64,000 nt of DNA. Origin: an uncultured bacterium. Its GTDB lineage: Bacteria; Patescibacteriota; Minisyncoccia; Phycocordibacterales; CAINVO01. Positions 3,755-46,978 of this stretch are shown here, piece by piece. Below the pieces are notes generated by a model, which did no database searches, was not told where the DNA came from, and worked only from the letters and a program-made list of their open reading frames with translations. Position numbers and translations under genes: made by a program. Each line of letters starts with the position of its first letter. Position 1 is the first letter of the stretch. The DNA lies in NCBI GenBank assembly GCA_903854195.1, contig CAINVO010000021.1, positions 14,032 through 78,031 on the forward strand, read 5' to 3'.

Positions 3755-5212
3755 TTAAATGAAATGCTCACGTCTTATTTTTTCGATTTCTTCTTTATCT
3801 TTTTCTTCTTGTTTCTTTTTCCCATTTTCAGCAAGTCCTATAAGGGTTTTTTCATCATAAGCTACTAGTTTTAGAACCTTGTTTTCTAGATATTTTTCAC
3901 TATTAAGTTCTGGTTTTTCTAGAACTTCCTCCATTAATGCGTTTAAAATGTATCCAACTTTTCGTCCTGGATCCATTTTTGTTATTTCCATTATTCTTTT
4001 ACCGTTAATTTTTAACATGGCAACTGATACAGGATCTCTCATCACTTCATCTATCATGGCCTTATATTTTCTAAATCTATAGGGGTTTTCTTTAGGGCGA
4101 CCTGTTCCAATACGGTCACACATTCTAATGTTCATTAGGTTCCAAATATTCTCTTTGCCGACATTCTGAATCATTCTACGAACAGCTGATGGTGTGATTT
4201 GTTCTGTATCTGAAAAGAACATGTGCCATCGCACAAGGGTGACCACCTGTTCAATTGTCTTTTTGGGAAAGCGAAGTCTTTCCAGTATAATTTGGGACAT
4301 TTTCGCCCCCACAACTTCGTGTCCGTAAAATGTCCACTCACCGTTTTGTCCTTTACGTCGGCTTCTAGGTTTTCCAATATCATGAAGTAACGCTGCAAGC
4401 CTAATCTCTAATCCCCAACCTTTATCTACCGCATGCTGCATGCTGCGAAGTAAATGTTCCCAAACTGTGTATGAATGGGCTTTGTTTTGATCAATCCCAA
4501 TAGACTCTTCAAGTTCAGGGATTATGTATTTAAGAACTCCCAGTTTTTGAGACATTATAATCCCAATCATGGGTTCGTTAGACATAATAATCTTGATAAA
4601 TTCATCACGAATCCTTTCAAAAGCTATCTTTTCTAGAAGTTTCACGTTAAACATTAGTGCTTCCGAGGTCTCATTGTTAATCGTGAAACCTAATTCAGAG
4701 CTAAATCTAACGGCTCTAAGTATTCTAAGCGCATCTTCCTTGAATCGTTCGTTTGCGTCCCCTACGGCTTTTATTGTTTTGGATGCAATGTCTTCTTGTC
4801 CTTTATATAGATCAATAATTTCGCCTTTCTCGGGATCTAGTGCTATGGCATTTATTGTGAAATCTCTTCTCTTAAGGTCATCTTCAATATGTTGGCTGTA
4901 ATGAACCTTATCTGGGTGTCTGTGGTCACTGTAGGTTGTTTCTAGCCTATATGGGGTTACTTCAATGATCCTTATTGATTCATCTTCTTCCTCTTCATTT
5001 ACAACTCCCACTGTCCCGAAGGTGTTCTCATAAAACGTTTTGGGAAAAAGGGATATTATTTGTTCGGGAGTAGCGTTTGTTGTAACATCCCAATCTTTAG
5101 GCTTTTTGTTTAAAATTAAATCTCTAACACATCCACCAACTAAAAAAGCTTCAAAACCTGAGTTTCTTAATGTTTTTGTTATTTGTGAAACACTATTTGG
5201 GACACTTAACAT
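3755..5212 (-). CDS. cca: CCA-adding tRNA nucleotidyltransferase / poly(A) polymerase family with an HD domain; start trimmed to 'MLSVPN...'
   Basis: 'LVGGCVRDLILNKKPKDWDVTT' is the Pol-beta nucleotidyltransferase head domain. 'LLHDIGKP' is the HD motif. The ORF-track N-terminal 46 aa are the antisense reading of tRNA-Arg (5275..5347), so the real start must lie downstream of it. Confidence 0.75.
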   Translation of the reverse strand: MLSVPNSVSQITKTLRNSGFEAFLVGGCVRDLILNKKPKDWDVTTNATPEQIISLFPKTFYENTFGTVGVVNEEEEDESIRIIEVTPYRLETTYSDHRHPDKVHYSQHIEDDLKRRDFTINAIALDPEKGEIIDLYKGQEDIASKTIKAVGDANERFKEDALRILRAVRFSSELGFTINNETSEALMFNVKLLEKIAFERIRDEFIKIIMSNEPMIGIIMSQKLGVLKYIIPELEESIGIDQNKAHSYTVWEHLLRSMQHAVDKGWGLEIRLAALLHDIGKPRSRRKGQNGEWTFYGHEVVGAKMSQIILERLRFPKKTIEQVVTLVRWHMFFSDTEQITPSAVRRMIQNVGKENIWNLMNIRMCDRIGTGRPKENPYRFRKYKAMIDEVMRDPVSVAMLKINGKRIMEITKMDPGRKVGYILNALMEEVLEKPELNSEKYLENKVLKLVAYDEKTLIGLAENGKKKQEEKDKEEIEKIRREHFI

Positions 5213-9961: not shown

Positions 9962-11515
9962 TTATCTTGCAAATTCTATTGCTCTATTTTCTCGGATAAC
10001 AGTTACTTTTATTTCACCTGGATATTTTAAATCATGCTCTATTTTTAGAGCAATTTCACGGGCTAAATCATGAGCTTGTAAATCAGAAATTTCACTGGGT
10101 CTGACAAATACCCTTATTTCTCGGCCTGCTTGGAGTGCATAAGATTTTTCAATACCTGGAAAACCGTTTGCGATTGCTTCAAGATCCCCAAGTCTTTTTA
10201 GATAGTTTTCAACGCTATCGCTACGAGCTCCAGGACGTCCTCCAGAAATAGCGTCAGCTGTTTGGACGATAATTGATTCAACTGTTTCGTATGGGTACTC
10301 TTCGTGATGTGCCTGCATAGCTTTTATGACTTCTTCACTCGTTCCAAATTTTTGCAGGATTCTTCGTCCGATTTCAACATGACTACCTTGAACTTCATGG
10401 TCTAGAGCCTTACCAATGTCGTGTAAAAGAGCGCCTGCTTTTGCTACAAGTACATTTGCGCCAAGCTCCTCAGCAATCATTCCAGCAAGGTGTGCCATTT
10501 CAACAGAGTGCTGGAGTACATTTTGTCCATAACTTGTTCTAAAATATAAACGTCCAAGAATAGATACAACTCTAGGGTCTAGATTAAGAACACCTGTTTC
10601 ATATACAGCTTGTTCTCCTTTCTCTTTTATTATTTTATTGATTTCATTTTTAGCATTTTCAACTTCCTTTTCTATTTTTGCAGGTTGAATACGTCCATCT
10701 GCAATTAAAGCTTCAAGTGCTACGCGTGCGACTTGTCTTCGTATCGGATCAAAAGATGAAATTGTGATTGATCCGGGTGTGTCATCTACAATAATCTCTA
10801 CCCCAGTTTCACGCTCAAATGCCTTAATGTTTCGGCCTTCTTTTCCAATAATTTTTCCTTTTATTTCATTTGACTCAATAACTATATGGGTTGTAAAAAC
10901 ATCCGCAGTAACTGCATTTGCAAGTCGCTGAATAGATGTAGCTAGAATTTCACGAGCTTTTGTTTCAAGCTTTTCCTCACCGTTCATTTCAAGTTTTTTT
11001 AAACGAATTAAGATATCTTCTTCGTTTTCTTTTTCAACCGTTCGTATAAGTTCATTTTTTGCTTCTTCTGTTGAAAGACCAGCTATTCGTGAAAGCTCCG
11101 TCTTTTTGTCTAACTCCAATTTATCAGCCCTCTCTTTTATTGCCTTTATTTCCTCTATGCGTTGCTTGATTAATTCAACCTCCTTATCTATGTCAGTTTG
11201 TCTATGATCCAAAAGCTCCTCTTTTTTTATAAGGCGGTCTTCTGTTTTCTTTATTTTTTCTTCCTTATCCTTTGATTCTTCTCTGACTGTTTTTAATATT
11301 TCTGCTGCCTGACCCTCGGCATCAAGTGTGATTTTCTTGGCCGTCTCTTTTGCTTCAACTTCCATTTGCTTAACCTCAAGCTCAATAGAACCCTTTTTGC
11401 CGAGCGCTATTATCCAACGAAGCATGTAACCACCGACTAGACCAATACTGCCAGTTAAGGCAATAGTGACTAGTAATATTGTTAATGAAAAAACCATGGC
11501 GATTTGTTCGCTCAA
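9962..11515 (-). CDS. rny: Ribonuclease Y
   Basis: N-terminal TM, a long coiled coil, a KH domain ('IIGKEGRNIKAFERETGVEIIVDD') and an HD domain ('LLHDIGKALDHE'). Confidence 0.85.
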   Translation of the reverse strand: MSEQIAMVFSLTILLVTIALTGSIGLVGGYMLRWIIALGKKGSIELEVKQMEVEAKETAKKITLDAEGQAAEILKTVREESKDKEEKIKKTEDRLIKKEELLDHRQTDIDKEVELIKQRIEEIKAIKERADKLELDKKTELSRIAGLSTEEAKNELIRTVEKENEEDILIRLKKLEMNGEEKLETKAREILATSIQRLANAVTADVFTTHIVIESNEIKGKIIGKEGRNIKAFERETGVEIIVDDTPGSITISSFDPIRRQVARVALEALIADGRIQPAKIEKEVENAKNEINKIIKEKGEQAVYETGVLNLDPRVVSILGRLYFRTSYGQNVLQHSVEMAHLAGMIAEELGANVLVAKAGALLHDIGKALDHEVQGSHVEIGRRILQKFGTSEEVIKAMQAHHEEYPYETVESIIVQTADAISGGRPGARSDSVENYLKRLGDLEAIANGFPGIEKSYALQAGREIRVFVRPSEISDLQAHDLAREIALKIEHDLKYPGEIKVTVIRENRAIEFAR

Positions 11516-35722: not shown

Positions 35723-37864
35723 ATGGAAAGAGATTATTCACTCGAAAAAACACGTAACTTCGGTATCATTGCGCACATCGATGCTGGTAAAACAACTACA
35801 TCTGAGCGTATTCTTTATTATACTGGTATGAGTCATAAGATTGGTGAGGTTCACGAGGGTGAAGCTACAACTGACTGGATGGAACAAGAAAAAGAGCGAG
35901 GTATTACTATTACTGCCGCTGCCATTACTTGTTTTTGGAACCCATCATATATGGGCAAGGATCAATCACTAAAACATCGTTTTAATATTATTGATACACC
36001 TGGGCACGTAGATTTTACTGTAGAGGTGGAACGATCTCTTAAGGTGCTTGATGGAGGAGTTGTTGTTTTTGACGGTGTGGCCGGAGTAGAACCACAATCA
36101 GAGACAGTTTGGAGACAGGCAGATAAATATAACGTACCACGTGTTTGTTTCATAAATAAATTAGACCGAACAGGAGGCTCATTTGAGCGTTCTTATCAAT
36201 CAATTTTGGATCGTTTAAATAAAAATGCTGTCCGCATGCAGATTCCAATTGGAGAAGAAGAAAAATTTGAGGCTGTTATTGATCTTATGAAGATGAAAGC
36301 ATATTACTTCGAAGGTGATATGGGAATTAACGTTCGTGAAGATGAAATTCCAGAAGCTTATTTGGCTGATGCAAAAAAATATCGTGCAGAGCTTGTAGAG
36401 CGTATTGTAGAAAATGATGACGGTCTTATGTCAGCATATCTTGAAGGTAAGGAAATTTCTATTTCTGCTCTAAAAGAAACTCTCCGAAAGGCAACTATTG
36501 CAAATAAAATTTTCCCAGTGTTTACAGGTTCTGCTTTGAAAAACAGAGGAGTCCAACTTGTGCTTGATGCCGTTGTTGATTATCTACCATCACCACTAGA
36601 TGTTCCTCCAGTAAAAGGAACTGATCCAGCGAATGGTGAAGAAATTTTGAGACATGCATCTGACACTGAACCTTTTTCTGCTCTTGCTTTCAAGCTTCAG
36701 TCAGATCCGTTTGTAGGTCAGCTTACTTTCTTCCGCGTTTATTCAGGTACAGTAGAAGCTGGTTCTTATCTTTACAACTCAACAACAGGAAATAAGGAGC
36801 GCCTTGGACGTATTGTTAGACTTCAAGCAGATAAACGTGAAGAAGTTAAAAAAGTTTACGCTGGAGAAATTGCAGCAGCTGTAGGTCTTAAAGAAGCAAA
36901 AACATCTCACACTTTTTGTGATGAAAATAATCCAATTGTTCTTGACCCTATTAAGTTCGCAGAGCCAGTTGTGTCATTGCGTATTGAACCAAAGACAAAG
37001 GCTGATCAAGAGAAGATGGGTATGGCTTTGAAAAAACTTGGAGATGAGGATCCAACTTTCCGTATTTCTACAAACCCTGAAACTATGGAGACTATTATTT
37101 CAGGAATGGGGGAGCTTCACCTAGAAATCATGGTTGATCGTATGAAACGTGAATTCGGAGTTGAGGCAAATGTTGGTAAGCCTCAGGTTGCATATCGAGA
37201 AACAATTCTCGGCACAGCAGAAGCTGAACATAAATATATTAAACAGTCTGGAGGTAAAGGTCAGTATGGTCACGTTAAGATTACTTTGAAGCCTATGGAA
37301 AAACTTGAAGAAGGCGCAAAGATTCCTAAAAATGTTAAGAGATACGATGACTTTGAATTTATCGATAGTATCAAAGGAGGTGTTATTCCTCAGGAATTTA
37401 TTCCTGCAGTTGAAAAGGGTGTACGTGAAGCTATGGAGCGAGGTATCGTTGCCGGTTTCAAACTTGTAAATGTGTCTTGTGAACTTACATTCGGTTCTTA
37501 TCACGATGTTGACTCATCCGAAATCGCATATAAGATCGCAGGTTCCCAAGCCTTCCAGGAAGGTGCTAAACGAGCAAAACCAGTTATTCTAGAACCTATT
37601 ATGAAAGTAGAAGTTGTAACACCTGAGCAGTTCATGGGAGACATCACTGGTTCTCTTTCTGCAAAACGCGCTCAAATCGAAGGTATGGAAGATCGCGGCA
37701 TGAACAAAGCTATTAAGGCTATGGTTCCATTGTCTGAAATGTTTGGTTATACAACAGCTCTTCGTTCCATGACAGCAGGACGTGGATCAGCAACTATGGA
37801 GTTTGATCACTACGAAGTTGTTCCTCCAAATGTTGAGAAGACTATTGTTGAAACACGTAAGTAA
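35723..37864 (+). CDS. fusA: Elongation factor G; start trimmed to '[25 protein letters not shown]'
   Basis: G-domain motifs ([21 protein letters not shown]) and EF-G domains II-V. Confidence 0.9.
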
Positions 37865-37977
37865 TAAAAATATAAAAACCCTTTCGGTGACACGCATAAA
37901 TCTTTACTAAGATTTTGCTATGCTCGGAGCCAAGCTCCTGTGCAATGTCACCGAAAGGGTTTTTATATTTTTATTAC
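37861..37977. repeat. 32-bp perfect inverted repeat with a 53-bp spacer, overlapping the fusA stop codon
   Basis: 37861-37892 'gtaataaaaatataaaaaccctttcggtgaca' is the exact reverse complement of 37946-37977. Pairing continues imperfectly into the last fusA codons, giving about 44 bp with 2 mismatches. Confidence 0.7.
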
Positions 37978-38014
37978 TTACACGTTTCCCCATTATTATT
38001 AAGATTGGAAATAG

Positions 38015-38056
38015 AAAAAATCGGTCACGCGCTCGCGCGTGACCGATTTTGTTTTT
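38015..38056. terminator. Bidirectional rho-independent terminator between fusA (+) and the 38082..38828 gene (-)
   Basis: aaaaaa-TCGGTCACGCGC-tc-GCGCGTGACCGA-ttttgttttt. Perfect 12-bp GC-rich stem. Confidence 0.7.
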
Positions 38057-45051: not shown

Positions 45052-45891
45052 ATGAAATCCTATAAACCAACATCCCCATCACGTCGACAAATGAGTAATA
45101 TTTCTTATAGAGATGTTATCACTGCTACTACACCCCATAAAGCTCTTACAAAGGGTTTTAAGCGTTCTGTTGGTCGCAACAACCAAGGTGTTATTACTAC
45201 TCGCCATAAAGGTTCTGGTCACAAAAGAGTTTTCAGAGATATAGATTTTAAATACACAAAACTAGATATTCCTGCAACTATTTCAACTATTGAGTATGAT
45301 CCAAACCGATCAGCTTTTATTTCTCTTGTTACTTATAAGGATGGTGAGAAAAAATATTCTATTCTTCCAAAATCATTAAACGTTGGCGACACTTTTATTG
45401 TGTCAGAAAAGGCTGAAATTAAGGCTGGAAATCGTCTCCCACTTAAAAATATCCCAGTTGGTACATTTGTATACGGAGTAGAAGTCAAACCAAAAGGCGG
45501 TGCATCTATTGCGCGATCAGCTGGAAATTATGCTGAAGTTGTTGCCCATGACGAAGGATATGCTCAAATCAAAATGCCTTCATCAGAAGTTCGTAAGGTT
45601 AAGGATGAGTGTTGGGCATCAGTCGGAGAAGTTTCAAATGATGAAAATCGTCTGCAAAATTATGGAAAAGCAGGACGTAGTCGTTGGAAAGGTATCCGCC
45701 CTACAGTTAGAGGTACAGCACAGAACCCAGTAGACCACCCACATGGAGGAGGAGAAGGACGTCAGGGTCGTGGTCGCCGTCGCGCAATCTCAGTTTACGG
45801 CAAACCAACAGGAAAGGGACAGAAATCTCGACATCCTAAGAAATATTCAAATAAATTTATTGTAAAGCGAAGAAAAGTAGGAAAGAAATAA
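45052..45891 (+). CDS. rplB: 50S ribosomal protein L2
   Basis: 'GRNNQGVITTRHKGSGHKR' and 'VRGTAQNPVDHPHGGGEG' match L2. Confidence 0.9.
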   Translation: MKSYKPTSPSRRQMSNISYRDVITATTPHKALTKGFKRSVGRNNQGVITTRHKGSGHKRVFRDIDFKYTKLDIPATISTIEYDPNRSAFISLVTYKDGEKKYSILPKSLNVGDTFIVSEKAEIKAGNRLPLKNIPVGTFVYGVEVKPKGGASIARSAGNYAEVVAHDEGYAQIKMPSSEVRKVKDECWASVGEVSNDENRLQNYGKAGRSRWKGIRPTVRGTAQNPVDHPHGGGEGRQGRGRRRAISVYGKPTGKGQKSRHPKKYSNKFIVKRRKVGKK

Positions 45892-45925
45892 AAAAAAGAC
45901 CCTCAAATGAGGGTCTTTTTTTGTG
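45892..45925 (+). terminator. Rho-independent terminator immediately after rplB, in the position normally occupied by the rplB-rpsS junction
   Basis: aaaaaa-AGACCCTCA-aat-TGAGGGTCT-ttttttt. Confidence 0.65.
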
Positions 45926-45940
45926 CAGACGCACGTGTTT

Positions 45941-45996
45941 AAAATAAGAAAAACCCACCAGCTGTGACAGGTTTTCCTGTTTAAGGTGGTGGGTTT
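45941..45996 (-). terminator. Rho-independent terminator for the minus-strand 45999..46301 gene
   Basis: On the minus strand: ACCCACCA-...-TGGTGGGT followed by ttttcttatttt. An inner acagg/cctgt hairpin is also present. Confidence 0.5.
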
Positions 45997-45998
45997 GA

Positions 45999-46301
45999 TT
46001 AACTCAGAATGCCGCAACTTCCTTTGCTTGGGATCCAGAGTACTGCTTCTGGCCATTTTAATGGCGATAGGGTGATGTTTTGAGGGAATCTTGCCACAAT
46101 TCCGTCAGGGAAGCTTATGAGCTCAGTCACGACCCCTACTAATGTTTCCCAGTGGCCTAGGAATTTATATGGAATGATTAGTTGGCTGCCATCTAGGACA
46201 GCGCGAATTAATTGGTTTTCAGTAGGGATGTTTATTCTCTGAACACCAATGAATATACTTGCTGGGTTTAGTGGGTAACCATTTTCGTCAGTTACTTTCA
46301 T
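45999..46301 (-). CDS. Hypothetical protein (100 aa) inserted, antisense to the operon, between rplB and rpsS; locally elevated GC
   Basis: Strong SD (TAAGGAG, 6 nt upstream of the ATG). Own terminator. No recognisable family. Confidence 0.45.
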   Translation of the reverse strand: MKVTDENGYPLNPASIFIGVQRINIPTENQLIRAVLDGSQLIIPYKFLGHWETLVGVVTELISFPDGIVARFPQNITLSPLKWPEAVLWIPSKGSCGILS

Positions 46302-46450
46302 GTAATCTCCTTAGTTATCTGGACGGTTTATCCGGACAGATTGGTTTTTCAAGAAAGGGTTTTGCGTAATGTAAAACCATCACTTTCTGACTATACTTTA
46401 ATACAAAAAGTTCGCATTGTCAATACATAGAGTAAACTTGTTAAAATTTA

Positions 46451-46560
46451 AGCCACACATATAGCTCTTTTTGAGAACCTTGCGCAGGCTGACGGGCCGA
46501 GAAGAGCAAAATCCCAGCAGGGATTTATGTGTGTGATCAAAAAGAGCTATATGTGTGGCT
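46451..46560. repeat. 24-bp perfect inverted repeat with a 62-bp spacer (110-bp hairpin element) upstream of the rpsS promoter
   Basis: 46451-46474 'agccacacatatagctctttttga' is the exact reverse complement of 46537-46560. The spacer holds a 7-bp hairpin, aaatccc-agca-gggattt. Confidence 0.7.
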
Positions 46561-46566
46561 GATAAT

Positions 46567-46595
46567 TTGACATTAAATACATCCCTTGATAGTAT
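46567..46595 (+). promoter_or_regulatory. Candidate sigma-70 promoter re-initiating rpsS-rplV-rpsC...
   Basis: TTGACA-17 nt-TAGTAT, 42 nt upstream of the rpsS ATG. Confidence 0.5.
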
Positions 46596-46636
46596 GGGCA
46601 TCTAAGTCCAATACGGGCTTTTTATTTACACATCAA

Positions 46637-46978
46637 ATGACAAGATCACTCAAAAAAGGACCATACGTTGACGAAAAACTACTCAAAAAAATTGAGGGTA
46701 AAAAGCCGGTAGAAACTGGTGTTATTAAGACATGGGCACGAAGAAGCCAGATTTCACCAGAAATGGTTGGATTTATCTTCGGTGTGCACAATGGCAAGCA
46801 GCACCTAGAGGTTCTTGTATCAGAGGAGATGGTAGGACACAGACTCGGTGAATTTTCTCCTACAAAGAAATTTATCCGTCATGGAGGTAAAATGCAAAAG
46901 GAACAAGAAGCTGCTAAGAAAGATGCAGAGGTTGCAGCAGCAAAGGCGGCAAAATCAACAGTTGCAGTTAAAAAATAA
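46637..46978 (+). CDS. rpsS: 30S ribosomal protein S19 (start trimmed to '[12 protein letters not shown]'; Lys/Ala-rich C-terminal tail)
   Basis: '[16 protein letters not shown]...[25 protein letters not shown]' matches S19. Confidence 0.85.

Follow-up and report, generated by a model that had tools for sequence, protein, structure and literature searches.

Organization of the rplB-rpsS region

The 64,000-nt stretch of contig CAINVO010000021.1 analyzed here (the whole of it is referred to as the window) derives from an uncultured, ultra-small bacterium (Paceibacteria) and carries on its plus strand the translation genes tuf, rpsJ, rplC, rplD, rplW, rplB, rpsS, rplV, rpsC, rplP onwards, a cluster which, as read from its sequence, is of the Patescibacteria type. 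Within this cluster, rplB and rpsS are spaced by 745 bp accommodating a gene for a 100-aa protein on the opposite strand and a long-stem structured element, i.e., an inverted repeat with a core between its arms (Table 1). The initial annotation of the region had described a hairpin terminator at the end of rplB, a convergent terminator serving an antisense open reading frame (ORF) with a strong Shine-Dalgarno (SD) motif, the repeat and a near-consensus promoter restarting rpsS, and all these features were recovered in place, so that the S10 operon is interrupted physically and, judging from its signals, probably also transcriptionally. What had been missed were the promoter-like site of the ORF itself and a conserved hairpin in its 5' untranslated region (5'UTR). 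Both promoter-like sites match the sigma-70-type consensus at 10 of 12 positions, the one preceding rpsS with an upstream TG, while a sequence scan predicts intrinsic terminators on both strands at the end of rplB, where the 15-nt arms are 100% complementary with an A-run on one side and a T-run on the other, and on the minus strand behind the 100-aa gene (45947-45978/45996).

Table 1. Features of the rplB-rpsS junction and the second copy of the structured element (window coordinates).
Feature	Position	Strand	Characteristics
Second, diverged copy of the structured element	37857-37981	+	36-bp near-perfect stem; covariance model R3, 89 bits
rplB (uL2)	45052-45891	+	279-aa ORF; last gene of the upstream unit rpsJ-rplC-rplD-rplW-rplB
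Bidirectional intrinsic-terminator-like hairpin	45891-45922	both	A7-GACCCTCA / TGAGGGTC-T7; abuts the rplB stop codon
Terminator-like hairpin followed by T-run	45947-45996	-	directly past the stop of the 100-aa gene, which it serves
100-aa gene (P0001)	45999-46301	-	undescribed family of predicted small beta-barrel proteins of about 100 aa
SD motif TAAGGAG	46307-46313	-	5 nt ahead of the ATG of the 100-aa gene; direct sequence reading
5'UTR hairpin of the 100-aa gene	46317-46341	-	candidate cis-regulatory (operator) element; AUCUG-UC-CGG-AUAAA-CCG-UC-CAGAU
Promoter-like site of the 100-aa gene	46423-46395	-	TTGACA-17-TAAAGT; sequence scan
Long-stem structured element (inverted repeat)	46451-46560	- (by homology with other copies)	covariance model R3, 98 bits, E 1.6e-20
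rpsS promoter-like site	46567-46595	+	TTGACA-17-TAGTAT, extended -10 TG; sequence scan; same hexamers in L005
rpsS leader hairpin followed by U-run	46604-46627	+	terminator- or attenuator-like; between promoter and start codon
rpsS (uS19)	46637-46978	+	first gene of the downstream unit rpsS-rplV-rpsC-rplP...

The gene order is identical in four independent ENA assemblies (ERZ1426655, ERZ18630316, ERZ27229609, and ERZ27313173), and the three contigs compared at the DNA level (L001-L003) match the window with 100% identity as far as each of them extends into the gap, which L001 spans completely. Hence, the spacer is not an assembly artefact, which had been named initially as a circumstance that would undo the proposed insertion. 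Due to the same complete identity, the three contigs are uninformative on strain variation. One of them (L002, ERZ27229609:k141_270055) begins within the repeat core, showing that some assemblies are interrupted by the repeat, and its last ~19 bases are Illumina adapter sequence (AGATCGGAAGAGCACACGT).

Variability of the junction among relatives

For comparison, the 80 best uL2 matches among one-genome-per-species GTDB contigs were taken as relatives, and the genes for S10, L3, L4, L23, L2, S19, L22, S3, and L16 were located in each of them by tblastn. The window uL2 is 65-78% identical to that of the 80 metagenome-assembled genomes (MAGs) of Paceibacteria/Patescibacteria, the nearest ones being labeled Paceibacteria, Paceibacterota, Parcubacteria and related. 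The rplB-rpsS junction could be assessed in 74 relatives. The gap was measured in 55 of these, where it has a median of 630 bp (range 58-3882 bp) and exceeds 300 bp in 38 cases, while in the further 19 no rpsS was found within at least 1.5 kb of the available downstream sequence. Taken together, 57 of the 74 assessable relatives have a junction longer than 300 bp or rpsS elsewhere. The essentially universal adjacency of rplB and rpsS from which the initial annotation started thus fails in this clade. Rather than being a one-off event, the arrangement in the window exemplifies a property of the clade, namely a split S10 cluster whose rplB-rpsS spacer is hypervariable among the 80 relatives. Spacings above 300 bp were never found at the L3-L4, L4-L23, S19-L22, L22-S3, and S3-L16 junctions and occurred in a single relative at L23-L2. 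A second, weaker variable junction is S10-L3 (rpsJ-rplC), where 20 of 72 relatives exceed 300 bp; the window itself has a tight spacing here (43318/43348).

The content of the spacer is highly diverse, with 138 of the 210 ORFs found downstream of rplB in the relatives being singletons. Recurrent are a relocated rplS (8 loci), a minus-strand DUF3298 gene (9 loci) and a likewise relocated rplJ(-rplL) block accompanied by one MscS-like and one helix-turn-helix (HTH) gene (11 loci), whereas AbiEii, a C5 DNA methylase, NUDIX, patatin, CAP, RuvB, and NAPRTase represent single or rare cargo. Members of the 100-aa family were not detected among these 210 ORFs with a hidden Markov model of the family. 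In L009, a 101-aa minus-strand ORF (4852-5157) in the rplB-rpsS gap mimics the arrangement of the window. It has no homologues among the gap ORFs and overlaps a copy of the structured element (4848-4940), and was dismissed as an analogue of the 100-aa gene since it is probably spurious.

In 40 of the 55 relatives with a measured gap, a strict promoter match lies at most 130 nt from rpsS, and even the shortest gaps (~55-110 bp) have TTGAC(A/T)-16/17-TAnnAT ahead of it. In the closest relative (L005, 78% uL2 identity), the gap comprises 92 bp, and the promoter-like sequence TAATTTGACA...TAGTATG, which equals that of the window, lies only 14 nt past the rplB stop codon. Compared with L005, about 670 bp have been gained in the spacer of the window. 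Moreover, a leader hairpin with U-run precedes rpsS in 29 of the 55 relatives, often as AAGCUCGUUAGGAGCUUUUUGUU (for example, in L039, L051, L055, and L064), which looks like an attenuator or autoregulatory leader of the rpsS unit. The simplest reading of these signals is that rpsS heads its own transcription unit in this lineage and that the spacer in front of it is therefore free to vary. As the promoter is present even in short gaps, the 100-aa gene would sit in a pre-existing permissive spacer. The initial view of a cargo gene inserted into the ribosomal operon accordingly needs to be amended: the gene is real, under purifying selection and foreign-looking in composition, but no co-transcribed operon appears to have been broken by it.

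As a side observation, the uS19 of the window bears an Ala/Lys-rich C-terminal extension (encoded at 46900-46975), a trait already known from Parcubacteria (PMC9297842).

The 100-aa gene and its protein family

The higher GC content initially ascribed to the ORF is present, albeit modest overall (43.2% versus a window mean of 36.6%, within the top 5% of 303-nt windows) and clearer at third codon positions (GC3; 39.6% versus 19-31% in the neighboring ribosomal protein genes). Its closest homologue (P0002) shows 62% identity, with dN of 0.33 and dS of ~2.2, resulting in a dN/dS of ~0.15, and from this comparison the ORF is a real gene under purifying selection. While a word-index search gave just 2 and then 7 proteins, an exhaustive profile search against 1.84 billion representatives revealed a family of 53 clusters at E ≤ 1e-3, 21 of them at E ≤ 1e-10. 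Most members have a length of 99-125 aa and share the motifs GYPxNPxSIFIGxxR, PVRFxGxWExLxGxV, FxDG, and LKxWxxxxLWIPxxGx(A/C)G(I/V)L, the latter usually being C-terminal or ending at most ~10 residues from the C-terminus. Some longer members (P0004, P0011, P0021, P0028, and P0036; 190-250 aa) carry N- or C-terminal extensions of ~100 aa without Pfam match, which could hint at partner domains; Pfam scans of 10 longer or fused members yielded nothing useful.

No source, cluster look-up included, names this family, and no description of it was found in the literature searched, the coverage of which was incomplete. P0001 has no match in Pfam, PHROGs or PADLOC at E ≤ 10 and none in NCBIfam, a PDB sequence profile search with the family gave nothing at E ≤ 10, and 32 family members remained without Pfam match at E ≤ 1, the WYL profile PF13280 among the profiles not matched. 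Likewise, neither P0001 nor the 32 members match Pfam LSM or Hfq. Scans of metagenome and viral (IMG/VR) collections with back-translated patterns did not find family loci.

Structure prediction with AlphaFold2 (AF2) on an alignment of 32 sequences resulted in a model with a predicted local distance difference test score (pLDDT) of 95.7 and a predicted template modeling score (pTM) of 0.85, superseding a run with 2 sequences (pLDDT 68.6). The modeled chain begins with short strands at the N-terminus, followed by a helix (residues 28-37), a series of five strands and one more strand at the C-terminus. The model was compared with the small barrels of the WYL/Sm/Hfq type (BrxR 7t8k/7t8l, CapW 7tb6, PafBC 6sj9, DriD 7tzv, and Hfq 1kq1), domains which bind RNA, single-stranded DNA or small ligands. 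It appears to have in common with the WYL/Sm barrels a helix followed by a strongly bent five-stranded beta-sheet barrel of 50-65 residues. However, Foldseek found nothing close in the PDB, with BrxR at E 0.2, and the protein is best described as a small barrel predicted to be weakly Sm/WYL-like without demonstrable membership in either family.

Besides the window, nine further family loci were inspected (L004, L085, L087, L088, L091, and L094-L097). In these, the gene is located between unrelated housekeeping genes or within runs of hypothetical ORFs, with neighbors such as RelA/ParB, GrpE, NrdR/AsnS-like and PAP2/methyltransferase genes, and in none of them does it adjoin rplB or rpsS. Among all ten loci, there is no conserved partner gene or shared neighbor. 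The same architecture of TTGAC(A/C)-16/18-TAnnnT, hairpin, SD and start codon is found in 10 of 10, and in 9 of 10 the gene exceeds its flanks in GC content, the difference reaching 16 points. Raised GC and GC3 are seen, for example, in L004, L085, L087, L091, L094, L095, and L096 (52% versus 37% in the latter). Such a bias may either be a sign of horizontal mobility or reflect a constrained composition, and the distribution of the loci suggests that the family gene moves horizontally as a self-contained unit. In two cases, L091 (3001-3069) and L097 (154-189), the ORF starts given in the database run upstream into the 5'UTR hairpin, the annotated ATG of L097 even being the AUGGA loop of the hairpin itself. 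The true starts are likely located after the AAGGAG-type SD, so that the 124 and 112 aa given in the database probably overstate the length of these proteins.

A small, fast-moving and lineage-restricted gene with its own regulation might also encode a toxin or antitoxin, an immunity protein or an accessory factor against phages, which would be difficult to lose beside essential genes. In favor of this, the weak structural neighbors include the WYL domains of the defense regulators BrxR and CapW, besides an immunity protein at low Z, and AbiEii and a DNA methylase occupy the same junction in relatives. However, no toxin-antitoxin, defense or phage signature emerged from the homology and structure searches. 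The gene stands alone in each of the ten loci and not in the pair typical of toxin-antitoxin systems, PADLOC, PHROGs and Pfam are silent, relatives were not found in IMG/VR, a fold search against the viral predicted structures of BFVD gave no significant match, and the single-barrel model lacks the HTH domain carried by defense-associated WYL regulators. Such a role is therefore improbable. It might be suspected as well that the ORF arose by chance in a spacer without coding function or that the assembly is chimeric, considering that the ORF has no database annotation, that MAG-derived sequence is prone to assembly faults and that one contig breaks within the repeat. This suspicion is refuted already by the agreement of the four assemblies, with exact DNA in three, together with the low dN/dS, the 53 homologous clusters, the very confident AF2 model and the conserved promoter, hairpin and SD.

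The 5'UTR hairpin

A hairpin is present at the equivalent place in all ten family loci. It consists of an outer stem of 4-5 bp, a small internal loop and YGG-AUGRA-CCR, the loop being AUAAA in the window, while two loci show a CUGC-AYAGA-GCAG variant. When the ten hairpins are aligned without gaps, paired cells amount to 75%, compared to 25-42% in slid controls, two-sided changes are found in 21 cells and the observed covariation score was reached by 0 of 500 shuffles. With covariance model R1, the hairpin region of the window (46311-46347) scores 32.2 bits and is the sole significant match in the 64 kb, the next one reaching 15.6 bits (E 0.23).

Well-known translational operator hairpins bound by the gene's own product are the leaders of ribosomal proteins, the operators of phage coat proteins and that of T4 RegA. 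By analogy, the hairpin described here may be regarded as a short conserved stem-loop with a conserved loop sequence, gene-specific and located between transcription start and SD. In contrast to the operators named, it does not overlap with the SD or start codon, its binding by the product is putative, and a role as DNA operator or 5' stabilizer would be compatible with it as well. The product probably recognizes the 5'UTR hairpin of its own mRNA in an autoregulatory manner, RNA binding being the most likely mode, since the conserved loop and the presence of five G-U cells favor RNA over a palindromic DNA operator.

The long-stem structured element

The 110-bp perfect inverted repeat of the initial annotation is confirmed in its total length, but perfect complementarity is restricted to its 24-bp arms (46451-46474 and 46537-46560), which enclose a 62-nt non-palindromic core with two small hairpins (fold z-scores of -7.7 and -9.2). 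Read from the minus strand, this copy aligns over a 57-nt core with the second one of the window, the left arm of which reaches into the 3' end of fusA, covering its last codons and stop codon; a separate bidirectional terminator follows at 38017-38050. The arms of both copies differ and yet stay complementary, with 10 compensatory pairs among 28. A search of 757 kb of sequence with covariance models R2 and R3 resulted in 13 copies. In L008, L009, and L066, the element immediately follows rplB on the same strand; it is located between fusA and tuf in L059, matching the fusA copy of the window, between rpsJ and rplC in L033 and downstream of rplJ in L054. The L033 copy lies in an rpsJ-rplC junction spanning 2122-2378, and in L087 two tandem copies (11154-11360, minus strand) are found directly 3' of a clpB-like gene. 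Four copies are in other positions or inverted, the rpsS-proximal copy of the window among them. In an alignment of 8 sequences, 94% of the cells are paired, compared to 38-52% in slid controls, 25 of 28 pairs change on both sides and no shuffle reaches any of the observed measures; the alignment had been fitted to the model, which favors structure. The outer stems (20-40 bp) are rich in A on their 5' side and in U on their 3' side, in which they resemble the bidirectional terminators of this genome.

In Rfam 15, only four tRNAs reach the gathering threshold in the window, and no credible sub-threshold hit was obtained for the repeat or the hairpin. The literature searched, incomplete in coverage, did not yield a description of the element either. 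Palindromic intergenic repeats located in transcripts are known as ERIC/IRU, Correia elements and BOX/RUP, in addition to bidirectional intrinsic terminators. With the former, the element shares its nature of a 90-130-nt imperfect palindrome occurring in intergenic regions near gene ends in either orientation, and with the latter the A-rich 5' and U-rich 3' arms. Unlike in ERIC/IRU, Correia and BOX/RUP, near-identity between copies is not observed: the arms are free to covary around an asymmetric 57-nt core that is conserved between species, copies keep their position 3' of rplB and fusA, and Rfam has no match. Integron attC sites carry 5'-RYYYAAC...GTTRRRY-3' core sites at the ends, fold into an imperfect hairpin containing extrahelical bases and are found close to an integron integrase or a cassette array. 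By inspection, the element does not qualify as attC, as its ends (5'-GTTAAAA...TTTGAC-3') have the opposite polarity and the 24-bp stem is without bulges. It could rather represent a conserved transcript-end structure, i.e., a terminator, stabilizer or processing site; a conserved core nested in terminator hairpins is less likely.

A mobile element might, on the other hand, have hit the ribosomal operon, with the inverted repeat being its end or a miniature inverted-repeat transposable element (MITE) delivering or mobilizing the cargo. The foreign-like GC3 of the gene and the non-syntenic sites of its family would fit in with this, as would the fact that the structured element is found in either orientation, as a tandem pair in L087 and at several variable junctions. 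Since the arms resemble the stems of bidirectional terminators, a core inserting into hairpin loops is also conceivable. However, the repeat is present on one side of the gene only, the 670-bp insert is not flanked by direct repeats, and neither the gap nor the top Pfam families of the relatives' gaps include an integrase or transposase. A MITE, expected to have terminal inverted repeats shared between its copies, a target-site duplication and numerous near-identical copies, was discarded because the arm sequences differ between the two copies of the window and a flanking direct repeat is missing within the 64 kb. Moreover, the element is absent from eight of the nine other family loci searched and, in the remaining one (L087), is 3 kb away from the family gene, by which a link between the protein and the element is rejected. 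The repeat as a vehicle of the cargo is equally dismissed, considering that it belongs to a conserved structured family and that the copies 3' of rplB in L008, L009, and L066 come without such a gene. An exact 22-mer of the arm had no match in JGI metagenomes or IMG/VR. Finally, the arms of copies within one genome have diverged strongly, although complementarity and the conserved core were maintained, and the same positions 3' of rplB and 3' of fusA are occupied in genomes sharing a uL2 identity of just 69-76%. Arm divergence with maintained pairing and conserved positions point to old, constrained elements rather than to recent transposition, and the mobile-element scenario is unlikely.

A proposed split S10 cluster with a hypervariable spacer

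Altogether, the findings are best explained by a split S10 cluster with a hypervariable spacer holding an acquired cassette and a structured element, to which as a whole we assign a probability of about 60%. Accordingly, the S10 cluster would not be one operon but two transcription units, rpsJ to rplB and rpsS onwards, with the latter driven by its own sigma-70-type promoter and preceded by a hairpin-containing leader. With no need for co-transcription across the spacer, insertions, deletions and rearrangements would be tolerated there, giving rise to a clade-wide hypervariable spot. In the window, this spot would have received an opposite-strand and probably horizontally acquired cassette of promoter, 5'UTR hairpin, SD, 100-aa ORF and terminator, whose product, a compact beta-barrel, may bind nucleic acid, most likely RNA, and thereby regulate its own mRNA through the hairpin. 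The spacer would additionally hold one copy of the long-stem element in inverted orientation relative to rplB, whereas in relatives the element seems to be normally found directly 3' of highly expressed translation genes (rplB, rpsJ, fusA) and of clpB.

Several points weigh against parts of this explanation. As the sample is made up of the best uL2 matches alone, the taxonomic extent of the split is not established. The promoters and terminators of the window are consensus matches, and as a class such sites are no commoner in the region than in shuffled sequence; their weight derives from position and conservation, not from counts. The raised GC content of the family genes could partly reflect amino-acid composition. 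Given the weak Sm/WYL resemblance of the model and the missing Sm, Hfq and WYL sequence matches, nucleic-acid binding is only a lead. The ten hairpins had been chosen and centered by eye, and the same covariation would be expected if a palindromic operator in the DNA co-evolved with an autoregulator binding DNA as a dimer, while the hairpin could equally be a generic 5' stabilizer unrelated to the protein. Finally, the rpsS-proximal copy of the long-stem element runs opposite to rplB between two divergent promoters, so it may not be transcribed at all, which may fit a DNA-level or relic role better than one at transcript ends.

The available parts of earlier accounts describe variable or foreign genes as gathering at transcription-unit boundaries of the translation gene cluster, and the window is alike in this respect. 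In these parts, however, the separation is one between operons, while here the boundary lies inside the classical single S10 operon, at rplB-rpsS and rpsJ-rplC. Compatible with our findings, predicted genomic islands in Patescibacteria have been found to be enriched in translation genes (PMC12455944). A split between rplB and rpsS was not found described in the literature searched; due to incomplete coverage, this is no proof of novelty. A further-reaching and rather doubtful generalization would be that fixed breaks of the S10 cluster in Paceibacteria (rplB-rpsS and rpsJ-rplC) are marked by the long-stem element, acting as an operon-end or insulator module or representing a mobile core that targets hairpin loops, which would make these breaks clade-wide hotspots of gene exchange. 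The 100-aa family would then be mobile, self-regulating RNA-binding barrels recognizing the AUGRA-loop hairpin in their own mRNA.

Implications

Phylogenomics of the candidate phyla radiation and the checking of bins both rely on the block of 16 ribosomal protein genes as a standard backbone, for which synteny is assumed. With a clade-wide break between rplB and rpsS, where the variable cargo can reach more than 4 kb, contigs fragment at this point, marker sets are split and island predictors flag ribosomal regions. Three testable objects furthermore come out of this region, namely a protein family of confidently predicted fold that lacks known relatives and comes with a cis hairpin dedicated to it, a structured element that covaries strongly and is located at 3' ends of translation genes, and a conserved leader of the attenuator type ahead of rpsS. 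In ultra-small symbionts, even the most conserved bacterial gene order can dissolve once internal promoters arise.

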